Assembly (NCBI GenBank): GCA_963662405.2
Contig: CAXXKT010000001.1
Location: forward strand, 2,432,001 to 2,496,000
Direction of reading: 5' to 3'
Length of the DNA stretch: 64,000 nucleotides
Source of the DNA: Syntrophales bacterium
Lineage (GTDB): Bacteria; Desulfobacterota; Syntrophia; Syntrophales; UBA2210
Shown here: one piece after another, positions 6,121 through 15,743 of the stretch
Layout: every line of letters starts with the position of its first letter
Numbering within the stretch: position 1 is the first letter of the stretch
Translations under genes and position numbers: made by a program
The notes under the pieces: generated by a model
Database searches by the model: none
Seen by the model: the letters and a program-made list of their open reading frames with translations, nothing else
Told to the model about the DNA's origin: nothing

Positions 6121-6196
6121 GGCGGCATAGCCAAGTGGCTAAGGCAGCGGTCTGCAAAACCGTTATTCACCGGTTCGAGTCCGGTTGCCGCCTCCA
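6121..6196 (+). tRNA. tRNA-Cys (GCA), integration target
   Basis: GGCGGCA acceptor stem, anticodon loop CTGCAAA, GGTTCGAGTCC T-arm, encoded CCA. Confidence 0.97.
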
Positions 6197-6197
6197 A
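6152..6197 (+). repeat. att core, left copy (3' part of tRNA-Cys)
   Basis: CTGCAAAACCGTTATTCACCGGTTCGAGTCCGGTTGCCGCCTCCAA, identical to 15698-15743; starts at the first base of the anticodon loop. Confidence 0.95.
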
Positions 6198-6202
6198 GAA
6201 AT

Positions 6203-6238
6203 AACAAGGGGTTAGCCTACAACGGCTTGCCCCTTGTT
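6203..6238 (+). terminator. Hairpin directly downstream of tRNA-Cys
   Basis: AACAAGGGG-TTAGCC...GGCTTG-CCCCTTGTT inverted repeat followed by TGTTT; also lies at the 3' end of the convergent integrase. Confidence 0.6.
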
Positions 6239-7417
6239 TGTTTCAGGGTGCGTATAGGGTGCGTTTGGTTGCGTGTCCAGTTCGTCAATGTCCGATCTGC
6301 TTTCCTTTGGAAGCCATTTGTAATAAGTCCTATATGTGATTTCCGTTGTCGAATGACCCATTTCCTTGCTTACCTCTGCCAGGGAATCCCCTTTACTCAA
6401 TCGCAAGGTAGCATAGGTGTGCCTCATATCGTGCGGGGTCCGTCTTCTCAGTTTTGACTTATCCATGCCCCGGTTCCATACACGATGAATGAAGTTGCCA
6501 TAATTCAAGGGTGTACCGTCTTCATTGTTGAAAACCCATTCCGGCATAGACTTCCATCCCTGTTTAAGCGTTCTCTCTGCCATGTACTTTTTATGCTGTG
6601 TGAGAAGCTCTGCAAGTTGTGAGGTCATTCTTACGTGACGACGGCTTGACCGGCTCTTAGGGGTCGTTATTTTGCCCCGCGTGATGTTCCTTTGCACAAG
6701 TATCAACTTTTGATAGAAGTCAATATCCCCCCACTGTAGGCCGATAATTTCACCTATTCTGAGACCGGTTCTAAATCCACAAATGACAAGGGGATAATAT
6801 GTCGGATACTCTTTTAAGAATGTCTGTTCAAGTTTTGCGCGCTCTTTCCATGACAAAGGGTCCGGTTCTTTTACTTGCCGTTCATCTTCGGGTTTCGGTA
6901 TGGGAACCCCTCGCGCAGGGTTTGAAGAGATGAAACCATCAGGATTCACGGCATGCCTTAAAATTGCGCTCAGACAGTTTTTTATATTCCTTGCCGTGCT
7001 ACTCCTTAACCCTCCCTTGATCTTTTCGCTTATAAGGTCGCTGATCATTCGTGACGTGATTTCATCAAGGGGTTTCGATCCAAAAGCAGGTAAGAGGGTT
7101 TCATCAATTATGAGTCGATAGCTACGGTACGTAGAATGCTTCAGAGATAGGAGGGCAACTTTTTTATACCAACCGGTTTGAGATTTGCCTTCAGAGTCTT
7201 TCCAGCCGTCAACATATTCCTTGAGGGTAGGGGGCTTAGAGGATTTATCATCAATCCCCATTTCTCCCAGGGTCAATTTTGCTTCGATCTTCCTTGCGGC
7301 CTCCTGGGCAATACGCTTATCATGCCCCACCTTCTTTGATTTGCGTTTCCCGTTGTGATTGATAAACAACCACCATTCCCCGGACCCTTTGACCTTTTCT
7401 TTGACCTTGACTCCCAT
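6212..7417 (-). CDS. int: Tyrosine recombinase / phage integrase
   Basis: RTGLRIGE, PKS, HDMRHTYA, MGHS and TYRTYY catalytic motifs; adjacent to att. Confidence 0.96.
   Translation of the reverse strand: MGVKVKEKVKGSGEWWLFINHNGKRKSKKVGHDKRIAQEAARKIEAKLTLGEMGIDDKSSKPPTLKEYVDGWKDSEGKSQTGWYKKVALLSLKHSTYRSYRLIIDETLLPAFGSKPLDEITSRMISDLISEKIKGGLRSSTARNIKNCLSAILRHAVNPDGFISSNPARGVPIPKPEDERQVKEPDPLSWKERAKLEQTFLKEYPTYYPLVICGFRTGLRIGEIIGLQWGDIDFYQKLILVQRNITRGKITTPKSRSSRRHVRMTSQLAELLTQHKKYMAERTLKQGWKSMPEWVFNNEDGTPLNYGNFIHRVWNRGMDKSKLRRRTPHDMRHTYATLRLSKGDSLAEVSKEMGHSTTEITYRTYYKWLPKESRSDIDELDTQPNAPYTHPETNKGQAVVG
6245..6263. repeat. Probable integrase arm-type binding sites (left)
   Basis: AGGGTGCGTATAGGGTGCG (two AGGGTGCG units) recurs exactly at 15604-15622 near the other att core. 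Confidence 0.75.
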
Positions 7418-8285: not shown

Positions 8286-8708
8286 ATGGATTTTAATAAG
8301 CCGGTCAAATATAGTAATTATATTTCTGGATTTTTGGCCATATGCCTATTTATTGTTTTGCCGTTTTTTATCTTAATGGATACTTGTTCTACATCATCTC
8401 CGCCCCCCACACCTGAACAAATTGCTGCTAAGCAATTACGTATGGATGATATGGACGCACGGACATGGGCCAGAATATATGTCAAAAATTCACTTAAATC
8501 GCCTTCAACAGCTAAATTTCCAAACGTGCTCGACTATATAGTCGCAAGAGCAGCAGACGAAAAAGGCAATATCATAAAGGATACATGGATAGTCTCTAGC
8601 TACGTAGATGCTCAGAATAGTTTCGGTGCAATGCTGAGAAGCAGATGGTGTGTTACGCTTAAAAAAGTAGGTGACAAGTGGATTGCACTTGACGTTGATA
8701 TACGATAA
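8286..8708 (+). CDS. Membrane-anchored accessory protein of the element
   Basis: One TM helix; LKSPSTAKF...YVDAQNSFGAMLR pattern typical of phage-associated hypotheticals; function unknown. Confidence 0.7.
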   Translation: MDFNKPVKYSNYISGFLAICLFIVLPFFILMDTCSTSSPPPTPEQIAAKQLRMDDMDARTWARIYVKNSLKSPSTAKFPNVLDYIVARAADEKGNIIKDTWIVSSYVDAQNSFGAMLRSRWCVTLKKVGDKWIALDVDIR

Positions 8709-9062: not shown

Positions 9063-9422
9063 TTATTCAATCCGCCCCTGTGCGAAGATGCACAGGGCAG
9101 TATTGCTTGACGAATCGACTGTAAGAGAAGTTGCTGCCGTCAACACCATCCCGCCGTTTCGAAAATCCCATTGCAGTGAGGTATTCGCGGCCATTGCAAC
9201 AGGACCTAGCAAAGCCGTTGTGACTGCTGCGCCTGTCTTCCCTTCGCCGATGGTGATACTCTGAGCACCGGCCCCGTTGTTAATGGTGAGATGGTCAACA
9301 ATGATCGACGTTCCCGCCGCCGGAGCCGCTTTTAATACTTCACACCCGGACGCATCGGCGCTCGTGGCGTTCAAAATCCACCCGAATTTTCCGGGAGCTG
9401 GATTCGTTACAGTAATAGCCAT
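9063..9422 (-). CDS. Putative virion structural / capsid accessory protein
   Basis: Ala/Thr/Gly-rich beta-type sequence, last gene of the capsid operon; positional inference. Confidence 0.55.
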   Translation of the reverse strand: MAITVTNPAPGKFGWILNATSADASGCEVLKAAPAAGTSIIVDHLTINNGAGAQSITIGEGKTGAAVTTALLGPVAMAANTSLQWDFRNGGMVLTAATSLTVDSSSNTALCIFAQGRIE

Positions 9423-9435
9423 AATTCACCCCTTC

Positions 9436-9942
9436 CTATGCCAGGCACGTAGGCATCCTGTTCGCGGGATATCGCGGTTCCAAGATTGCGAATACAATCG
9501 CCTGTCCGGTCGCTCCACCGGGATCGGTGAAGTCAAGCGTCAACCACTCTTCACCATTCGCAACATCCATCTCAGAGGCCATGATATCGACAACCAGCAT
9601 GTAGTTGTCATAGGTGCCGTGAGTGAGCGTGAGTGCCGCGCTCGTACTCCAGGCAGTGAGAACGTCACAGGAAGCAGTACTTCCCGCAACCGCCGTTCCC
9701 TGTGCCGCACCGCCAAAGGCGTAACGGAAGGTCAAGGCCGAAGTGCAAGCCGCATCACTCGCGCCTGAATACAGATACAACACCGGGCTTGCCGTCCCGA
9801 TATCGTAAAGCTGAATCAGGTAGGTGCACCGATGAAAATTCTTCATACAAATACTGTCCGAAAGGTTGGAAGCTGCATTATCGAAGTCGATATCAACACC
9901 AACCGGGACGGGTTTAAAATTTTCGATGAAAATCATGTTCAT
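9436..9942 (-). CDS. Putative head decoration protein
   Basis: Directly follows the major capsid gene; Ala/Thr/Asp-rich with C-terminal LEPRY; positional inference. Confidence 0.55.
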   Translation of the reverse strand: MNMIFIENFKPVPVGVDIDFDNAASNLSDSICMKNFHRCTYLIQLYDIGTASPVLYLYSGASDAACTSALTFRYAFGGAAQGTAVAGSTASCDVLTAWSTSAALTLTHGTYDNYMLVVDIMASEMDVANGEEWLTLDFTDPGGATGQAIVFAILEPRYPANRMPTCLA

Positions 9943-9992: not shown

Positions 9993-11297
9993 TTATCGAG
10001 CACCAAGAACCACGAAGGGGCTTACCGTCGTGCTTCCGTCTTCAAGGGTCAGAGCCTCATCCCAGAGGGGCTGGCCGTCGTGCCGTTCTATGATTCTTGA
10101 CAACAACTCATCCGTGGTAAAGTGAACATGGATTGACGTGTCAAACCTCATGCCCTCCCGGAGTCCCACAACGTACTGTGAGAAGTCACAGAGCATGATA
10201 TCGCCCTTATTCCCAAGAACTTCCGTCTTTTCCGTGAACAAAACCGGCCTCGTGAGGATCTTGAATTGACCGTTACTTTCAGTCATAACGGGTATTCTGT
10301 CGCCTCCGGTGCCAACGGCAATGCTTAAGGTCAATAGTTGCGGTATCGTGGATTGGTGACACACCCATACAGAGTTTTGGAAGCTCCCCGCGAACATCCT
10401 CGCCATCATGTTTGTCAAATTTTCGTACACGATGGTATCAGCCGCCTGGCCGTTTTCAGGGTCAACCTCTATGGTGCAACCAGCATTCAGGATACCCAAC
10501 GGTCCACCTGCCGCGCCGATCCCTTTCAAAAAGGCTTTATCCCGGTACCAGGCAAGGCCTTTTCCACACAGGGTTTCAATCTGTGACATCCCGCCGGGAG
10601 TATCCGCATTCAGCTCAGAGCTGAACCGAATCAAACCCGTCAATTTTTTCGCGTTCAGGGTCATGCTGCGAGCTTTCGGGGAGTTTTCGCTTATCGTGCC
10701 AAGCTCTGCTGTATAGGACGCGGTAAACCCGCCGAAAAGAGCTGTTGAATGATCCCCAATTGACATAGCTGGAATCTTGATTTCATTGCCCTTCATAGGC
10801 TGAACGAAACATCTCGGCATTACCAATTCATTTTCCAGTGATACCGCGTGAATCCTAGCGGCCTGCTCGGAGGGTACCAGAAAGCCCCCATCACTCGGAA
10901 CCGTTTCACTCATGGAATTGAGTAGAAGGCCCGGATGGTGACGGCCGGAAAGCGCCGCTGCGAAGAAGTTCGTTGTCTCATCTTCCCACTTGTACCCGCC
11001 GCTTCCAAACAGGCTTTTATAATCTTTTGCCCCGTTCGGGGGTATCAGAGTGCGGGCACCGTCAAGCCGGTATTCGCTGCCATTGCCTCTATCGGTAAAA
11101 TTCATGTTCTGAGGAAGGCTAAGCGGCTTTTCGGGAAGATATTTCCGCTCGTCTTCAATAGCGGATTCCATTTCGCCTATAAGTGAAATTTCCTGAGCAT
11201 TCAAAGCCCGCCCTTCTTTAACCGCCTTTACCTGAATATGTCCGATTTTCTCAGACAGTTTTTTTATATTTTCCCGTGTCTCTTCTTCGATATGCAT
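9993..11297 (-). CDS. HK97-family major capsid protein
   Basis: N-terminal coiled-coil (delta-domain-like), SDGGFLVP, LNAKKL, GDIMLCDFSQY and RHDGQP...SPFVVLGAR; ATG at 11297 after RBS AAAGGTGA. Confidence 0.9.
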   Translation of the reverse strand: MHIEEETRENIKKLSEKIGHIQVKAVKEGRALNAQEISLIGEMESAIEDERKYLPEKPLSLPQNMNFTDRGNGSEYRLDGARTLIPPNGAKDYKSLFGSGGYKWEDETTNFFAAALSGRHHPGLLLNSMSETVPSDGGFLVPSEQAARIHAVSLENELVMPRCFVQPMKGNEIKIPAMSIGDHSTALFGGFTASYTAELGTISENSPKARSMTLNAKKLTGLIRFSSELNADTPGGMSQIETLCGKGLAWYRDKAFLKGIGAAGGPLGILNAGCTIEVDPENGQAADTIVYENLTNMMARMFAGSFQNSVWVCHQSTIPQLLTLSIAVGTGGDRIPVMTESNGQFKILTRPVLFTEKTEVLGNKGDIMLCDFSQYVVGLREGMRFDTSIHVHFTTDELLSRIIERHDGQPLWDEALTLEDGSTTVSPFVVLGAR

Positions 11298-11339
11298 ATT
11301 ATTCACCTTTCAATTTTGTTTTATTTTTATGTATATAAA

Positions 11340-11517: not shown

Positions 11518-11868
11518 TTAGACAATTCTTTCATAACCGCCGCCGCTGATTCGCAGTTGCAGGTTCGTCTGAAGATTTAAAAGCTTCCATATTTTCAAAA
11601 ATTCCCCCGTTGCCTGTCGCTGCGTATTGAGTAACGGGTGTTGCCGGGCTATCTTTGACCGCTCTGACTTTTTGCTTAATCCCTCTTCCCGGATAATTCG
11701 CCCGCACTCATCCGCCTGGTCCATCGCTTCAAGACCCCGAAGGAATAGCGCAATTTGACCCGGAGCACGGACGGACCGGCCCACATAAAAACTGAATAAT
11801 TCCTTTGCCTTTTCGCTTAAATGTTCCGGTGGTTCCGGCCATTTATGTTCATTTTCTGAGCTTGTCAT
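11518..11868 (-). CDS. terS: Phage terminase small subunit, P27-like
   Basis: PEPPEHLSEKAK...IREEG...QHPLL...WKLLNL pattern. Confidence 0.8.
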   Translation of the reverse strand: MTSSENEHKWPEPPEHLSEKAKELFSFYVGRSVRAPGQIALFLRGLEAMDQADECGRIIREEGLSKKSERSKIARQHPLLNTQRQATGEFLKIWKLLNLQTNLQLRISGGGYERIV

Positions 11869-12007: not shown

Positions 12008-12811
12008 TCATTTATCCCACCACTTGCCCTTTTCATCTTCCGGCCTGTCTGTTACTTCCCGGAGATACCGGCCCACCTTTTCAAGCTTGACTACCTTTTC
12101 CAGGCAACCCGTTCTCCGGTGAAACTCTACCCGGACCTTTGCCCGGTTCTCTCCATCCTTCGGGGTCCGCTGTATCATCAAAACGCTGTCGCTTTCCTGA
12201 GAGACAAACGAGCTATCCCGGATTGATTCATAAGACAGGTTGCCCTCTGATTTGCCCTTCACGGTATGGCACAAGAGAAAGATAATCAGGCCATTATCCA
12301 CCGCCAGGCTCTTCAGTCGTCTAATGACCGCGCCGATATCAAGGCTTGGGTTCCGGCTCCTGGCAATGTCAAACAAGTAATGAAGGTGATCGATGAAGAC
12401 CACGCGGGTATGGTACTTGATAAACGATTCAAGGATTCTGTCTTCTAACCACTTCATGTCGTGTGCTTTTAGTTTTGACGGCATATAGACAAACGGGACT
12501 TTCTGAAACTGTGACAGGAATTGACGCGCCGGGACTTCATAGGAAAACCACAGCGGGAAGATTTGCTGTTTTATCATTTCCACCGTGAAGCTCTGACAAA
12601 GGAGCGTCTTTCCCCCTTTGGTGTAACCTGATACCGCGTACACCTCCCCGGCCTGAAAACCCTCAATGTAGCGGTCAAGGGTAGGGATACCGCTCTTGAC
12701 GGTAACCACCGGCTCCGCCGTGCTCTCCAAGGCAAGGGAAAGCTCCGGCGCACTTATGACCCGATCCTCACCTTGATAGTTTTTTAAGCTCTCTTGCCGT
12801 TTCGCGGTCAT
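12008..12811 (-). CDS. DnaB-like (RecA-fold) helicase domain protein
   Basis: SGIPTLD, Walker A GYTKGGKT, FSYE, Walker B VVFIDHLH, IRDSSFVSQESD. Confidence 0.85.
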   Translation of the reverse strand: MTAKRQESLKNYQGEDRVISAPELSLALESTAEPVVTVKSGIPTLDRYIEGFQAGEVYAVSGYTKGGKTLLCQSFTVEMIKQQIFPLWFSYEVPARQFLSQFQKVPFVYMPSKLKAHDMKWLEDRILESFIKYHTRVVFIDHLHYLFDIARSRNPSLDIGAVIRRLKSLAVDNGLIIFLLCHTVKGKSEGNLSYESIRDSSFVSQESDSVLMIQRTPKDGENRAKVRVEFHRRTGCLEKVVKLEKVGRYLREVTDRPEDEKGKWWDK

Positions 12812-13118
12812 TCAAGATTTCCTTTCTCAATGTTTCAATCGTGTTCATGTCCTCTGCTATCAGGCCCCGGATTAACTCTTGCATGTCCGGCTCTGCGCCC
12901 TCCGCCAGGGCAACCTCAATGCCTATTAGTTCCGTCAAGACCTGCATGTGCTCCCGGCTTTCCCGTTCATATTCCCGGTAAAGTTCCCCCACGTAATCAC
13001 TCTTAGGGATGTTTCCTTCCCGCTCCTGTCTCTCTTTCTCCGCAACCTCCGCCCGTTCTTTCTCTGACAGGAAAGGGGCAACTTCCTTGAATGCCTCTTG
13101 ACGGTTATTCCCAACCAT
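12768..13118 (-). CDS. Hypothetical acidic coiled-coil protein in the replication operon
   Basis: Overlaps both neighbours on the same strand; no family recognised. Confidence 0.6.
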   Translation of the reverse strand: MVGNNRQEAFKEVAPFLSEKERAEVAEKERQEREGNIPKSDYVGELYREYERESREHMQVLTELIGIEVALAEGAEPDMQELIRGLIAEDMNTIETLRKEILNDRETARELKKLSR

Positions 13119-13752
13119 CAGCGGCCCCCTTCGGTTCGTCTATTTCGTCTTCCCACCGGCCTTGATTCAACCAGGTGGAAGCGTGGGGGATATACTTCTT
13201 GTCCTGCCATTGCTCAGAGTGTTTATGCAGTTCAAGGATTGAGAGAAGTTCATCAAGGGGGGGAAGGTCCCCGTTTCTTTTCTTCCAGGCCTTCCATGCT
13301 GCATCTTTTCCCACCTTCCGAGGATACGCTTGCCAGAAGGTGAGGAAATTTGACGTATATATATTTTCTTTCTTTACATTCTTGTATGTTGCCACTTGTT
13401 TGTCGTTTTGCGTGTCGTTTTCGTTTTCTTCGTTCTGGTAAGTGTTCCAATTCACTATGGTAATTATCGAAAATTTGTTTGTCGTTTTGCGTGTCACATT
13501 TCCGGCCTTTTCCAGAAATTCAAGGATAGTGCGGATTTCCCGGATTGTAAGGCCCGTTTCCTCGGAAGCTACCCGTAACCCAAAGATGAATTGTCCCGGC
13601 ATCAGGTGCACAACCTGCAACCCCACAATCGCGTCGTATTCCTTGTGGGATGCTTTCATCAGGCAGTAGGTCCAGAAAGCCCATAGCTTGTGATTCCTAA
13701 CCCAACCGGCATCAAGGGACCTGCGCCACAATTTGACATAGCCTTGATTCAT
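13105..13752 (-). CDS. Phage-type replication initiator
   Basis: GYVKLWRR N-terminus, IITIVNWNTYQ, C-terminal FWQAYPRKVGK...HASTWLNQGRWEDE. Confidence 0.85.
   Translation of the reverse strand: MNQGYVKLWRRSLDAGWVRNHKLWAFWTYCLMKASHKEYDAIVGLQVVHLMPGQFIFGLRVASEETGLTIREIRTILEFLEKAGNVTRKTTNKFSIITIVNWNTYQNEENENDTQNDKQVATYKNVKKENIYTSNFLTFWQAYPRKVGKDAAWKAWKKRNGDLPPLDELLSILELHKHSEQWQDKKYIPHASTWLNQGRWEDEIDEPKGAADGWE
13396..13495. repeat. Iteron-like 21-bp direct repeat inside the initiator gene (candidate origin)
   Basis: TTGTTTGTCGTTTTGCGTGTC at 13396-13416 and 13475-13495, next to an AT-rich tract. Confidence 0.65.
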
Positions 13753-13955
13753 TTTCCGGCTCCTAGCTGGTATGCGTGCGGATCGTCGAACCTTGTATTG
13801 AAGAGGACTGTTAACTCTTCCTCAGTCGTCTTAACCCGTCCCTTATCATTTGCCAGTTCCGCGATTAACAGAAACATGTTCGCGCCCAGGGGGTTTTGGT
13901 GATATAGGCGGTCGTACCGTTTCTTGAATTTCCTATTAGGTTTGAAAGTTATCAC
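13749..13955 (-). CDS. Small hypothetical protein
   Basis: 68 aa, start/stop overlap with both neighbours. Confidence 0.65.
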   Translation of the reverse strand: MITFKPNRKFKKRYDRLYHQNPLGANMFLLIAELANDKGRVKTTEEELTVLFNTRFDDPHAYQLGAGK

Positions 13956-14170
13956 TGCAAGTCCCTCAATGTTTCATTGACAATACTATCCACTTGGTCA
14001 TCTTCCACGGCGAACGATTCAAGGTAGGCATCAATCCAATCGTACTTAATCAAGATTGTGCCGCTCGGTATGCGGGAATGCCTCAACCCATCCTTTAGCC
14101 AATCCCGCATGGTTCTTTCGCTTATTCCGGCGTATTGTGCAGCGAGTTTTATTTTTGCCCAACCATTCAT
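13952..14170 (-). CDS. Excisionase-like HTH protein
   Basis: AAQYAGISERTMRDWLKDGL...IDAYLE MerR-like HTH. Confidence 0.85.
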   Translation of the reverse strand: MNGWAKIKLAAQYAGISERTMRDWLKDGLRHSRIPSGTILIKYDWIDAYLESFAVEDDQVDSIVNETLRDLQ

Positions 14171-14188
14171 GATTTGCCCCGTATTACC

Positions 14189-14392
14189 CTAACCCCGAAA
14201 AACCTCACTCGGATTTACATCAAGGTAGCTTGCAACTTTCTTTTCGATGTCAGGTGTTCCGATCCCATACTTGATAAGTGTAGATATCCGGCTTTCAGGA
14301 ATATCTGTTTCAAAAGCGAGCTGCCTTTGGGATATTTGCTTTTTGAAGAGCAGCATTTTCAAGGTTTCGTTTGGCCTGTATCTCGTACCCAT
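14189..14392 (-). CDS. XRE/Cro-family HTH regulator
   Basis: ISQRQLAFETDIPESRISTLIK...VASYLDVNPSEVF; RBS AGGAGG. Confidence 0.88.
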   Translation of the reverse strand: MGTRYRPNETLKMLLFKKQISQRQLAFETDIPESRISTLIKYGIGTPDIEKKVASYLDVNPSEVFRG

Positions 14393-14477
14393 GAGTAACC
14401 TCCTGAAAAAGTATTTCTTAAAAATGGAAGCAAAATTTTTTTGCCTTTCTACTAAGGGTAAAAATGTAACAGGATTT

Positions 14478-14709
14478 TCATAGTTTTTTCTTTATTCGCG
14501 CCACCACATTTCTAACATTAACCTCAGTCAAATCAAGCATTTGGGCTATTGCGCGATATGTTTTACCAGCAACCAAAAGTGTAACAATCTGCTGTTCCCT
14601 TGGTGTTAATTGTATGCGCCGTTTGGGTGATGGAAACTTGCCGTGACGTGGAACACCGATAGTTATTTCTCTTTGCGGTGTTTCCTGCTTTTTTGTTCAA
14701 GGCTTTCAT
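14478..14709 (-). pseudogene. LuxR/sigma-region-4-type HTH module D (frameshift in an A6 run; possibly an assembly error)
   Basis: ...GKFPSPKRRIQLTPREQQIVTLLVAGKTYRAIAQMLDLTEVNVRNVVARIKKKL*; ATG at 14709 is one base out of frame. Confidence 0.75.
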
Positions 14710-14770
14710 AAGCTCACTTCGGTAATCCTTGCCTTTCTACTAATAGTAAAAAAGGGGGTCAAAAACGTAA

Positions 14771-14908
14771 CTATTTGAGGTATTTTACCTTCATGCGCTT
14801 GAGATGATTTCTGAGATTTGCCCTAGTAATATTCAGTAGTTCTGCAATTTCGACCCTCGAAAAACCTTTTTCTGAAAGCGTAGCAATTTTCATCTCCATT
14901 TCAGTCAA
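14771..14908 (-). CDS. LuxR/sigma-region-4-type HTH module C (45 codons; expression uncertain)
   Basis: LTEMEMKIATLSEKGFSRVEIAELLNITRANLRNHLKRMKVKYLK*. Confidence 0.7.
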   Translation of the reverse strand: MTEMEMKIATLSEKGFSRVEIAELLNITRANLRNHLKRMKVKYLK

Positions 14909-14953
14909 ATGAACCTTGCCTTTCTACTAATAGTAAAAAAGGGGCTAAAACCG

Positions 14954-15094
14954 TCAAGATTTTAGGTATTTTTTCTTTGCATTTGCGTAGTGAACACCAA
15001 GGGTGTGCCTTGTTATTCTTAGCATTTTGCACACCTCGCCCCTCGACAGACCCCTTTCTAAAAGCGTCAAGATTTTCATCTCCATTTCCGTTAA
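14954..15094 (-). CDS. LuxR/sigma-region-4-type HTH module B (46 codons; first ATG at 15085; expression uncertain)
   Basis: LTEMEMKILTLLERGLSRGEVCKMLRITRHTLGVHYANAKKKYLKS*. Confidence 0.7.
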   Translation of the reverse strand, partial: LTEMEMKILTLLERGLSRGEVCKMLRITRHTLGVHYANAKKKYLKS

Positions 15095-15142
15095 ATGAAC
15101 CTCGCCTTTCTACTAATAGTAAAAAAGGGGCTAAAAGCGTCG

Positions 15143-15342
15143 CTATTTAAGGTGTTTTTTCTTCATCCTGTGCAAATGGTCACGCAAACTTTTTTTTGAA
15201 ATATCCAATAGTTCTGCAATTTCAGCCCTTGAAAAACCTTTTTCTGAAAGCGTCGCTATTTTCATCTCCATTTCAGTCAAATGAACCCCGCCAGGAACAC
15301 TCGGCCTCTTGCCAAAAACTCCTTGACAGTCTCAAATTCCAT
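15143..15342 (-). CDS. LuxR/sigma-region-4-type HTH module A (one extra base in the run at 15314-15318 would join it to the ATG at 15342)
   Basis: GKRPSVPGGVHLTEMEMKIATLSEKGFSRAEIAELLDISKKSLRDHLHRMKKKHLK*; upstream ATG has RBS AGGAGGGA. Confidence 0.75.
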
Positions 15343-15349
15343 TGATTCC

Positions 15350-15534
15350 CTCCTACTTATAGGAAAAAATTGTAAAATCTTGCGTTTTGCTGAACGAATC
15401 TGATAGCTTACCTGCTCGCTCGATAATTTAAGATAAACCCCGTATTGGTTGGCTGAAGATAATCTTGATGCAATCTGCTTGTAGGTAAGACCCTCGAAGT
15501 AGAAAAGGTGGAGACACTTGTTTTGAAGGGGAGT
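15350..15534 (-). pseudogene. Sigma70 region-4-like HTH module E, no in-frame start
   Basis: TPLQNKCLHLFYFEGLTYKQIASRLS...LSSEQVSYQIRSAKRKI, preceded by an in-frame TGA. Confidence 0.65.
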
Positions 15535-15603
15535 TCACTTAGAAATTGACTCTTATCGACTTATAGACTATGTTTTTCACAGCACCATGCAAGGTGCGGC
15601 AGT

Positions 15604-15622
15604 AGGGTGCGTATAGGGTGCG
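15604..15622. repeat. Probable integrase arm-type binding sites (right)
   Basis: Same 19-mer as 6245-6263; extra AAGGTGCG at 15591. Confidence 0.75.
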
Positions 15623-15697
15623 GATTACGGCAAAATATACGCAATTTGTGATAGCCAAGGGCTAGTAATATCGGTAACTTAGGGTGGCTCCTGTGTC

Positions 15698-15743
15698 CTG
15701 CAAAACCGTTATTCACCGGTTCGAGTCCGGTTGCCGCCTCCAA
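15698..15743 (+). repeat. att core, right copy
   Basis: 46-bp exact copy of 6152-6197. Confidence 0.95.

Follow-up and report, generated by a model that had tools for sequence, protein, structure and literature searches.

The window analysed here is a stretch of 64,000 nucleotides from the genome of a Syntrophales bacterium (assembly GCA_963662405.2, contig CAXXKT010000001.1, positions 2,432,001 to 2,496,000). It contains an island of ~9.6 kb that lies between identical 46-bp direct repeats and has a GC content of 47%, compared with 55–56% in the flanks. Near one end of this island, which works like a phage satellite, the minus strand encodes an array of five truncated helix-turn-helix (HTH) modules in the order E, A, B, C, D, pointing into the gene series cro-xis-rep-dnaB-terS-capsid. 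The modules were noticed in a sequence-only reading of this DNA, which took them for a repertoire of DNA-binding specificities. Each module spans matched operator-like boxes and a promoter-like core, and the DNA itself, missed by that reading, is probably their working part.

The frames bear out the five modules and their order. Read from stop to stop, they extend over 15277-15534 (E), 15143-15331 (A), 14954-15109 (B), 14771-14923 (C) and 14478-14696 (D), all on the minus strand, and the recognition helices and end motif quoted in the sequence-only reading were exact as written. Its LuxR/sigma-4 assignment also holds in a scan with hidden Markov models: A, B, C and D pass the Pfam cut-off for GerE of 23.5 bits (28.1, 24.5, 24.2 and 35.2 bits), and E gives a Sigma70_r4_2 match of 23.4 bits, just under the cut-off of 25.7. 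A, B and C form the tandem repeat that had been described (186, 186 and 187 bp, 72% matches, Tandem Repeats Finder score 571), with constant flanks (~29 bp 5' and ~27 bp 3') around a variable middle. A 12-mer core of the end motif occurs four times in the 3.8-Mb genome, always inside the array.

Contigs of three runs, which are from one sample and possibly the source of the assembly itself, tile positions 13396-15727 with no differing letters and no gaps, and in run X1 the depth is 5–5.7 in the array and 5.4 in the rest of the element. Because the contigs agree at single-copy depth, the letters, homopolymers and copy number of the array hold against the misassembly that had been feared; the order of the units rests on the assembly, since the contig pieces break at the repeats. 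The excision joint is not among the contigs, and no RNA data set carrying the element was listed; neither absence has weight as evidence. Stop-codon readthrough or programmed frameshifting that would fuse the modules was ruled out by the mixed TAG and TGA stops and the 187-bp unit, which leave the modules without a shared frame. Homopolymer errors hiding full open reading frames (ORFs) of A and D were likewise ruled out, as the contigs agree and the ORF upstream of A is the start of another gene.

All five modules are the 3' halves of one phage regulator family, made of a Cys4 domain and an HTH, and in all of them the Cys4 domain is gone. They go back to three or more lineages (E; A/B/C; D). 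Searches that used the modules directly as query gave nothing, and the family was reached by a profile search; besides many multi-domain HTH proteins, this search yielded about ten short relatives with a single domain and a CxxC-x5-C-x3-C motif, and an alignment of these short relatives led to 45 GerE-type proteins. The family proteins are ~95–150 amino acids (aa) long and consist of an N-terminal CxxC-x5-C-x3-C domain followed by an HTH of one of two subtypes, GerE or sigma-4. The Cys4 motif is present in 41 of the 49 GerE-type proteins listed, the others being fragments, and 44 of the 45 members match GerE at E ≤ 0.01. The E-type relatives comprise 17 proteins (full-length 122–156 aa, up to 80% identical to E) in which the four cysteines are invariant (17/17) on a sigma-4-type HTH. 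The two subtypes align at an HH probability of 99.3.

In fold searches, which covered the HTH part, the model of a full-length relative matched GerE (1fse) with a Z score of 6.5 and a root-mean-square deviation of 0.9 Å over 47 residues. Modules and relatives end after the recognition helix (GerE profile positions 3–45 of 57), and the predicted model has three HTH helices without the dimerising fourth helix of LuxR/NarL-type regulators. The N-terminus of the relatives is the Cys4 domain and not the receiver or ligand domain of those regulators. The Atlas gave no usable match for the Cys4 domain, whose spacing may resemble that of the CxxC-x5-C part of WhiB proteins. No trace of this domain was seen in a six-frame scan of the element, and no full-length family gene was found in this genome.

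Six-frame scans of 29 loci, most of them short contigs, revealed a family gene in 22, in single copy in each (17 full-length), and a further four loci all had one (4/4). Portal or terS is the first or second downstream ORF in 8 of the 12 GerE-type loci in which a downstream ORF was scanned; among the E-type loci, portal is the third ORF in phage L107 and terL lies ~1.4 kb on in phage L108. From this gene position and from the boxes described below, we infer that the family is a late-gene regulator. The known late regulators RinA, ArpU and LtrC are not among the Pfam families of the 45 members (23 families) or the NCBIfam families of the 17 E-type members (17 families), and no Ltr family is among the 25 of 39 NCBIfam families listed for the 45 members.

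Some natural loci have lost parts of the regulator. In L076 (7941-8135), L077 and L078, three viral contigs of the L075 phage, the gene, compared with that of L075 (1007-1315), is deleted from the Cys4 domain to helix 1, while both boxes and the core are kept before portal; such a phage might depend on the regulator of another phage. L060:1483-1656 (the same stretch as L099) carries a GerE-type module without the Cys4 domain (headless) and with matched TTA/TTA boxes, which has insertion sequence (IS)-like DNA at the end of the contig on one side and the attachment region of a tRNA-Arg on the other, and which points out of the element.

Every phage gene of the family ends in a hexamer, NNNACG, followed by a T-tract and an AT-rich palindromic core. 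The conserved motif that the sequence-only reading saw at the end of each module is this promoter-like gene-end element of the family. A matrix made from 12 phage loci and no window sequence (leaving aside the near-duplicates L080 and L086 and the atypical ends of L056 and L088) was run on both strands of the 3.8-Mb genome. At the natural spacing, no site in the genome scores above the end of D (28.1 bits) and that of E (21.6 bits), the next reaching 19.5. With 10 bp (one helical turn) added, a spacing chosen after the array had been seen, the top three are C (30.3 bits), A (27.8) and B (27.5), followed by 22.0.

GerE-type genes contain a second box, since the helix 1 codons for x-T-L-L spell the hexamer and T-tract, 103–106 or 113 bp upstream of the box at the stop codon. 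Of 17 natural loci, 12 carry the same variable triplet in their two boxes, compared with a mean of 2.8 in shuffles that ignore kinship, none of which (0 of 100,000) gave as many as 12. L060/L099, L089-L091, L075-L078 and L056/L057 were counted once each; the match is 10 of 14 once near-duplicates are dropped. The matched pairs span seven different triplets. In natural helix 1, the Thr codon is ACG in 16/17 loci and the next Leu codon CTT in 15/17. Sister genes switch both boxes jointly, as in L080 (GTT/GTT) versus L081 (GTC/GTC) and L089 (GTC/GTC) versus L092 (CTA/CTA). Residue 126 of the helix may covary with base 3 of the box (corrected p 0.01 with 16 loci and 0.09 with 14 loci) in a test that did not include the rows of modules A and D. 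Phage L109, also outside this test, combines the helix core of A, LRDH, with A's box 2, GCGACG. Other natural codes are TTG in L084 and GTT in L082.

The array reproduces this arrangement, with triplets GCG/GCG in A, TTG/TTG in B, GTT/GTT in D (ACA in both boxes) and GCT/GTT in C; A, B and D thus each repeat their own code in the second box, three codes in all, and C misses a match by one base. Module A (15104..15286) has its HTH codons at 15143-15286, box 1 (GCGACG) at 15251-15256, box 2 (GCGACG) at 15138-15143 and the core at 15104-15121. In module B (14918..15100), the HTH codons are at 14954-15100, box 1 (TTGACG) at 15065-15070, box 2 (TTGACG) at 14952-14957 and the core at 14918-14935; B has TTA where A and C have TTG, and a Gly at the family's conserved recognition-helix Arg. 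Its box 2 and core also fit a sigma-70 promoter (TTGACG-16-TACTAT), although such matches are no commoner here than in shuffles. Module C (14731..14914) has its HTH codons at 14771-14914, box 1 (GCTACG) at 14879-14884, box 2 (GTTACG) at 14766-14771, the core at 14731-14748 and a possible TTG start at 14908 with a Shine-Dalgarno sequence (SD) of -7.4 kcal/mol. Module D (14443..14696) carries box 1 (GTTACA) at 14580-14585, box 2 (GTTACA) at 14465-14470 and a core at 14443-14458, at the natural phage spacing. It keeps the family linker QREITIG, lacks an in-frame start before the HTH and is the most drifted protein. Module E (15349..15534) is a sigma-4-type 3' half without the Cys4 domain or an in-frame start, with a box-like sequence at 15371-15376 and its core at 15349-15363. 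The helix of each module has a closer counterpart among the natural proteins than among the sibling modules (10 vs 7, 8 vs 5, 10 vs 7 and 6 vs 5 of 14), figures that are the best of 57 comparisons and so biased upward.

Between E and A lies a 21-codon ORF (MEFETVKEFLARG..., 15277..15342, minus strand) with a strong SD (-11.3 kcal/mol). Over its first 13 codons it is similar to the beginning of the gene that follows the E-type regulator of phage L108 (MSQKETVEGFLARGG), and its TGA overlaps the TTG of A (TTGA). The 'GKRPS' sequence is another frame of this ORF, and the GK.PS segment reported as common to A and D turns out to be a frame coincidence, the homology of A beginning at VHLT. Because the DNA homology of A to natural genes starts at ~15285, at VHLT, A, B and C all begin at one point. 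The box in the helix 1 codons explains why this point is ~30 bp upstream of box 1; D, too, starts a short way upstream of its box 1.

A hairpin (GCAAAA-loop-TTTTGC) with a T-run is found at 14417-14442, between the D core and the start of cro, and similar ones lie beyond the core in L075, L082, L084 and L086; it might be a sign of attenuation or antitermination. Antitermination like that of lambda Q was considered on account of such hairpins, which were seen by eye in several of the phage loci.

Several features point to the DNA as the part that matters. D, E and the lone E-type module of another element (L110:1247-1480, described below) have no in-frame start. In D, 9 residues are foreign to the family (0–8 in natural proteins, median 1), yet its boxes are matched. 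In A, box 1 matches box 2 by way of an Ala at a position where none of 44 natural proteins has one, and B has Gly in place of an Arg that is found in 37 of 44 natural proteins, none of which has Gly (0/44). A and B have the same non-coding tail over ~34 nt, while the synonymous sites between them are near saturation. We infer that the HTH codons have been retained chiefly because they contain the boxes.

The interpretation that we favour, at about even confidence, sees in the array a panel of captured phage late promoters, which would fire the lytic operon of the satellite when any of several helpers makes its activator. By analogy with the Ltr proteins, the family protein would activate late genes, or act as an antiterminator, by binding the two boxes of its own gene. 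During infection, the activator made by a helper would then bind the unit with its code, and the bound unit would switch on the excision, replication and packaging genes of the satellite; several units would widen the range of helpers detected. E, D and the ancestor of A/B/C may have been captured separately, a duplication at a GGC microhomology may have made A-B-C, and the segments from box 1 to box 2 may then have diverged or been replaced by recombination. A and C may additionally make HTH proteins of 46 aa. A helper-directed role is the better founded because the modules derive from phage regulators that sit before packaging genes. The repertoire idea of the sequence-only reading thus survives as regards different DNA-binding specificities and a location upstream of the satellite's lytic operon, the role of the DNA having escaped it. 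A bolder version is a rather unlikely one: an updatable sensing memory, in which the satellite would duplicate a unit and overwrite the stretch between the constant flanks with the box-helix-box of phages that it has met, each unit sensing the activator of one helper in cis and, where translated, making the matching headless repressor in trans.

A number of observations weigh against a panel of captured promoters. The core in A, B and C is 11–12 bp farther from box 2 than in any phage locus seen, which may break activation, and the extra spacing in the matrix search was a post hoc choice. The helix-to-box covariation is suggestive and no stronger. Paired boxes were looked for in the E subtype and not found, and 4 of the 12 GerE-type loci have a homing endonuclease or nothing recognisable downstream. 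The array is known from a single genome, with no sister satellite carrying the region found and no helper identified. Lastly, the scaffold of A and C (the first 27 codons) shows five synonymous changes and one non-synonymous change (p 0.003 against neutrality, or 0.009 when the box codon is left out). This purifying pattern, together with usable TTG starts, points to selection on the protein, unless it was inherited from the donor.

The last point leads to a rather unlikely reading in which A, C and perhaps B are translated as HTH proteins of 38–46 aa that bind the boxes without a Cys4 domain. They would either block late transcription of helpers with the same code, in an interference like that of CapR and PtiA, or hold the panel of the satellite itself closed until they are displaced by the activator of a helper; this reading is compatible with a panel of captured promoters. 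Besides the purifying pattern, the four GerE HTH stretches are free of stops and frameshifts, and TTG starts are available in A (overlapping the stop of the strong-SD leader), C (SD -7.4) and B (codon 11, SD -8.5). The helices of A and C fit the natural helix/box pattern, and no other repressor was recognised in the element besides the co-directional Cro-like gene. However, D, E and the module of L110 have no in-frame start, B lacks the TTG of its siblings and the conserved Arg, A and C have the Ala that natural proteins never have at this core position (0/44), the predicted three-helix HTH is without the dimerising fourth helix, and the purifying signal may predate capture. The decoy idea of the sequence-only reading remains a rival explanation, but for A and C alone. 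Its mini-activators, proteins that would switch on the late genes of the helper in trans, are very improbable: the modules do derive from putative late regulators, and satellites with their own late activators are known (the P4 delta protein transactivates P2 late genes; PMC12239096), but all five modules have lost the Cys4 domain, which is better conserved than any other part except the HTH and is presumably needed for activation.

The array could also be an inert relic of one unit that once worked, captures and slippage duplication having left debris in which only the D promoter, with its natural spacing and position beside cro, still functions. The indels and lost starts in D and E, the unnatural core spacing of A, B and C, the microhomology at the duplication junction and the presence of the array in one genome agree with this, as do headless versions that arise in phages by accident or IS insertion (L076-L078, L060), and the matched boxes could be donor-inherited. 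Against it, the changes among the copies are neither uniform nor neutral, contrary to what the sequence-only reading expected of a decaying duplication. Synonymous divergence between A and C is found at 5/18 sites in the scaffold versus 7/8 in the turn and helix (Fisher p 0.009), the tails of A and B are identical, and three units from one duplication hold three box codes, with both boxes switched in A versus B. The relic is a rather unlikely reading in our assessment. Non-synonymous divergence between A and C also jumps in the turn and helix, which fits replacement of the segment better than point-wise positive selection. This mosaic divergence, with constant flanks (~29 and ~27 bp) around a variable middle, is also what silent cassettes swapped onto module A by recombination might produce, giving switchable specificity, as had been suggested. 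That scheme has very little to recommend it otherwise: A is headless at the same point as the others, without an N-terminal domain, and its supposed linker is the start of another gene; no full-length gene is found in the element or genome; the repeats are direct, not inverted; the integrase is the sole recombinase; and no rearranged contig was seen in the three runs, though contigs drop rare variants.

Searches for sister arrays found none by DNA in 100 relatives (0/100) or by profile in 338 genomes of the class (0/338), and searches with module E gave 0/150 and 0/300. An exact scan of viral contigs for the motif gave two matches, both in unrelated sequence without HTH modules. A related capsid gene is present in 21 other genomes of the class and a related excisionase in 14 genomes of the phylum; the modules are absent from the 13 capsid loci (fetched more widely) and 16 excisionase loci examined. 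The closest relative, L031, has an integrase 82% identical over 65 aa, on a 3.4-kb contig that ends before the array region. Runs X4 and X5 contain this satellite family in small shares. A second element in the same genome (C2:19000-30000), close to a tRNA-Pro, has the 68-aa ORF in common with the satellite (70%), as well as rep over its N-terminal half (88%). By eye, it carries integrases, an AlpA-like ORF, terS and terL; its left end is different, and it has no modules. L110 is a second tRNA-Cys-targeting element, with a divergent integrase, primase, helicases, terS and terL. Its one headless, start-less E-type module, followed by a gene-end element, lies between the integrase and the early genes and starts at the same codons as E, with a different junction. 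Phage L107 (L107:7866-9865), which has a full-length E-type regulator, has a capsid protein 35% identical to that of the satellite and, next to it, a gene for a 166-aa protein that is 52% identical; this is a kind of phage that could be a helper. A related-capsid satellite (62–64%) with a PICI-like gene order, PICI standing for phage-inducible chromosomal island, is located at L026:4389-13752 in G229; by eye, its 674-aa ORF after the capsid gene looks like a tape-measure protein.

The late promoters of satellite P4 answer to P2 Ogr, a Cys4 zinc protein. Both P4 and the present element thus appear to be satellites tied into the late-activator circuit of the helper; P4 has a complete activator with one specificity, whereas this element has no complete regulator and at least four box codes. 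Shufflons, diversity-generating retroelements and integron cassettes also consist of tandem units in which constant flanks enclose a variable middle. The array has no inverted units (all are direct, unlike the inverted segments of shufflons), invertase, reverse transcriptase or expression locus. There is also a likeness to the Ltr late transcriptional regulators (RinA, LtrC, ArpU), whose binding sites are direct repeats just beyond the end of the regulator gene and whose specificity resides in the C-terminal part (PMC3753634). These are likewise small regulator genes directly before the packaging operon with repeats at the gene end, and different phages use different repeats. The present family differs in its Cys4 domain and GerE or sigma-4 HTH, in having one box in the coding sequence and in boxes 103–113 bp apart; the Ltr repeats are all distal to the gene, and Ltr units are single, unlike the stack of five truncated ones in this satellite. 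A precedent for decoys is the interference with late transcription by CapR of PLE (a PICI-like element) and PtiA of Staphylococcus aureus pathogenicity islands (SaPIs), where a satellite DNA-binding protein of phage origin is aimed at the helper late promoter (PMC8096241). CapR, however, descends from a homing endonuclease, and PtiA acts by binding the activator; they are not truncated activator copies, nor are they arrayed.

Helper detection by satellites, and the use of several helpers by one satellite, are known mostly from derepression through protein-protein contacts, and stacked captured late promoters, if real, would be a DNA-level way to widen the helper range. No satellite with an array of captured late promoters was listed in searches of an open-access library, nor was a title describing a Cys4 + HTH regulator family. 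New is also the presence of two matching boxes per natural gene, one in helix 1, that change in step. The family, of 62 or more proteins in two subtypes, with an operator-like box within the HTH codons of the GerE type itself, offers a natural series for protein-DNA recognition and a way to predict the helper of a satellite from a 6-bp code.

The left attachment site, attL (6152..6197, plus strand), is the 3' part of an intact tRNA-Cys gene (6121-6196), and attR, the second copy of the 46-bp repeat, is at 15698..15743 (plus strand), the two 46-mers being identical. All of the following genes are on the minus strand. From the array onwards come a Cro/Xre-like HTH gene (14189-14392) with a strong SD, an excisionase-type HTH_17 gene (13952-14170), both in the direction of the array, a 68-aa ORF, and a replication module (12008..13752) made of a DnaD-like initiator (13105-13752), a 116-aa ORF and a DnaB-like helicase (12008-12811). 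These are followed by terS (11518..11868; phrog_83, E 1e-5, Terminase_4 below cut-off), an HK97-type major capsid protein (9993..11306; Phage_capsid, 111.5 bits), two small ORFs (9436-9942 and 9063-9422) and a tyrosine integrase (6212..7417; Phage_integrase, 72.8 bits; phrog_1). The first of the small ORFs encodes 168 aa and is the one with 52% identity to the 166-aa post-capsid product of L107.

This content places the element in part among the PICIs: it has an integrase with att repeats, and capsid and terS with no further structural or lysis gene. A scan of 34 ORFs and frames of the element recognised neither a gene for portal, large terminase, tail or lysis nor a divergent repressor. Of its regulators, Pfam gave HTH_17 at 21.7 bits (below cut-off), HTH_26 at 22.7 (at cut-off) and MerR at E 0.03; AlpA was not matched in the profile scan of the element. 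A primase was not found in general profile scans, which did not use the SatelliteFinder profiles. Compared with PICIs (PMC10085698), the integrase, small HTH regulators, replication module, capsid and terS are shared. The differences are an integrase at the downstream end, a DnaD-like initiator and DnaB apparently in place of the primase-replicase, and the lack of a clear AlpA, MerR or Stl match. Capture of helper late-region DNA by PICIs is described in PMC10111431; HE-PICIs (helper-embedded PICIs) use the late promoter of the helper by sitting inside it, whereas this element would carry promoters along.

Some smaller features of the island may be mentioned. Two identical 21-bp repeats inside rep (13396-13416 and 13475-13495) are likely an iteron-type origin, and the word GCACCCTATACGCACCCT, found near both att ends (15597-15640 and 6240-6275), probably marks arm-type sites of the integrase. 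The sole clear plus-strand ORF of the element (8286-8708), in a low-GC accessory region, encodes 140 aa with an N-terminal hydrophobic stretch and matches PHROG families of unknown function.

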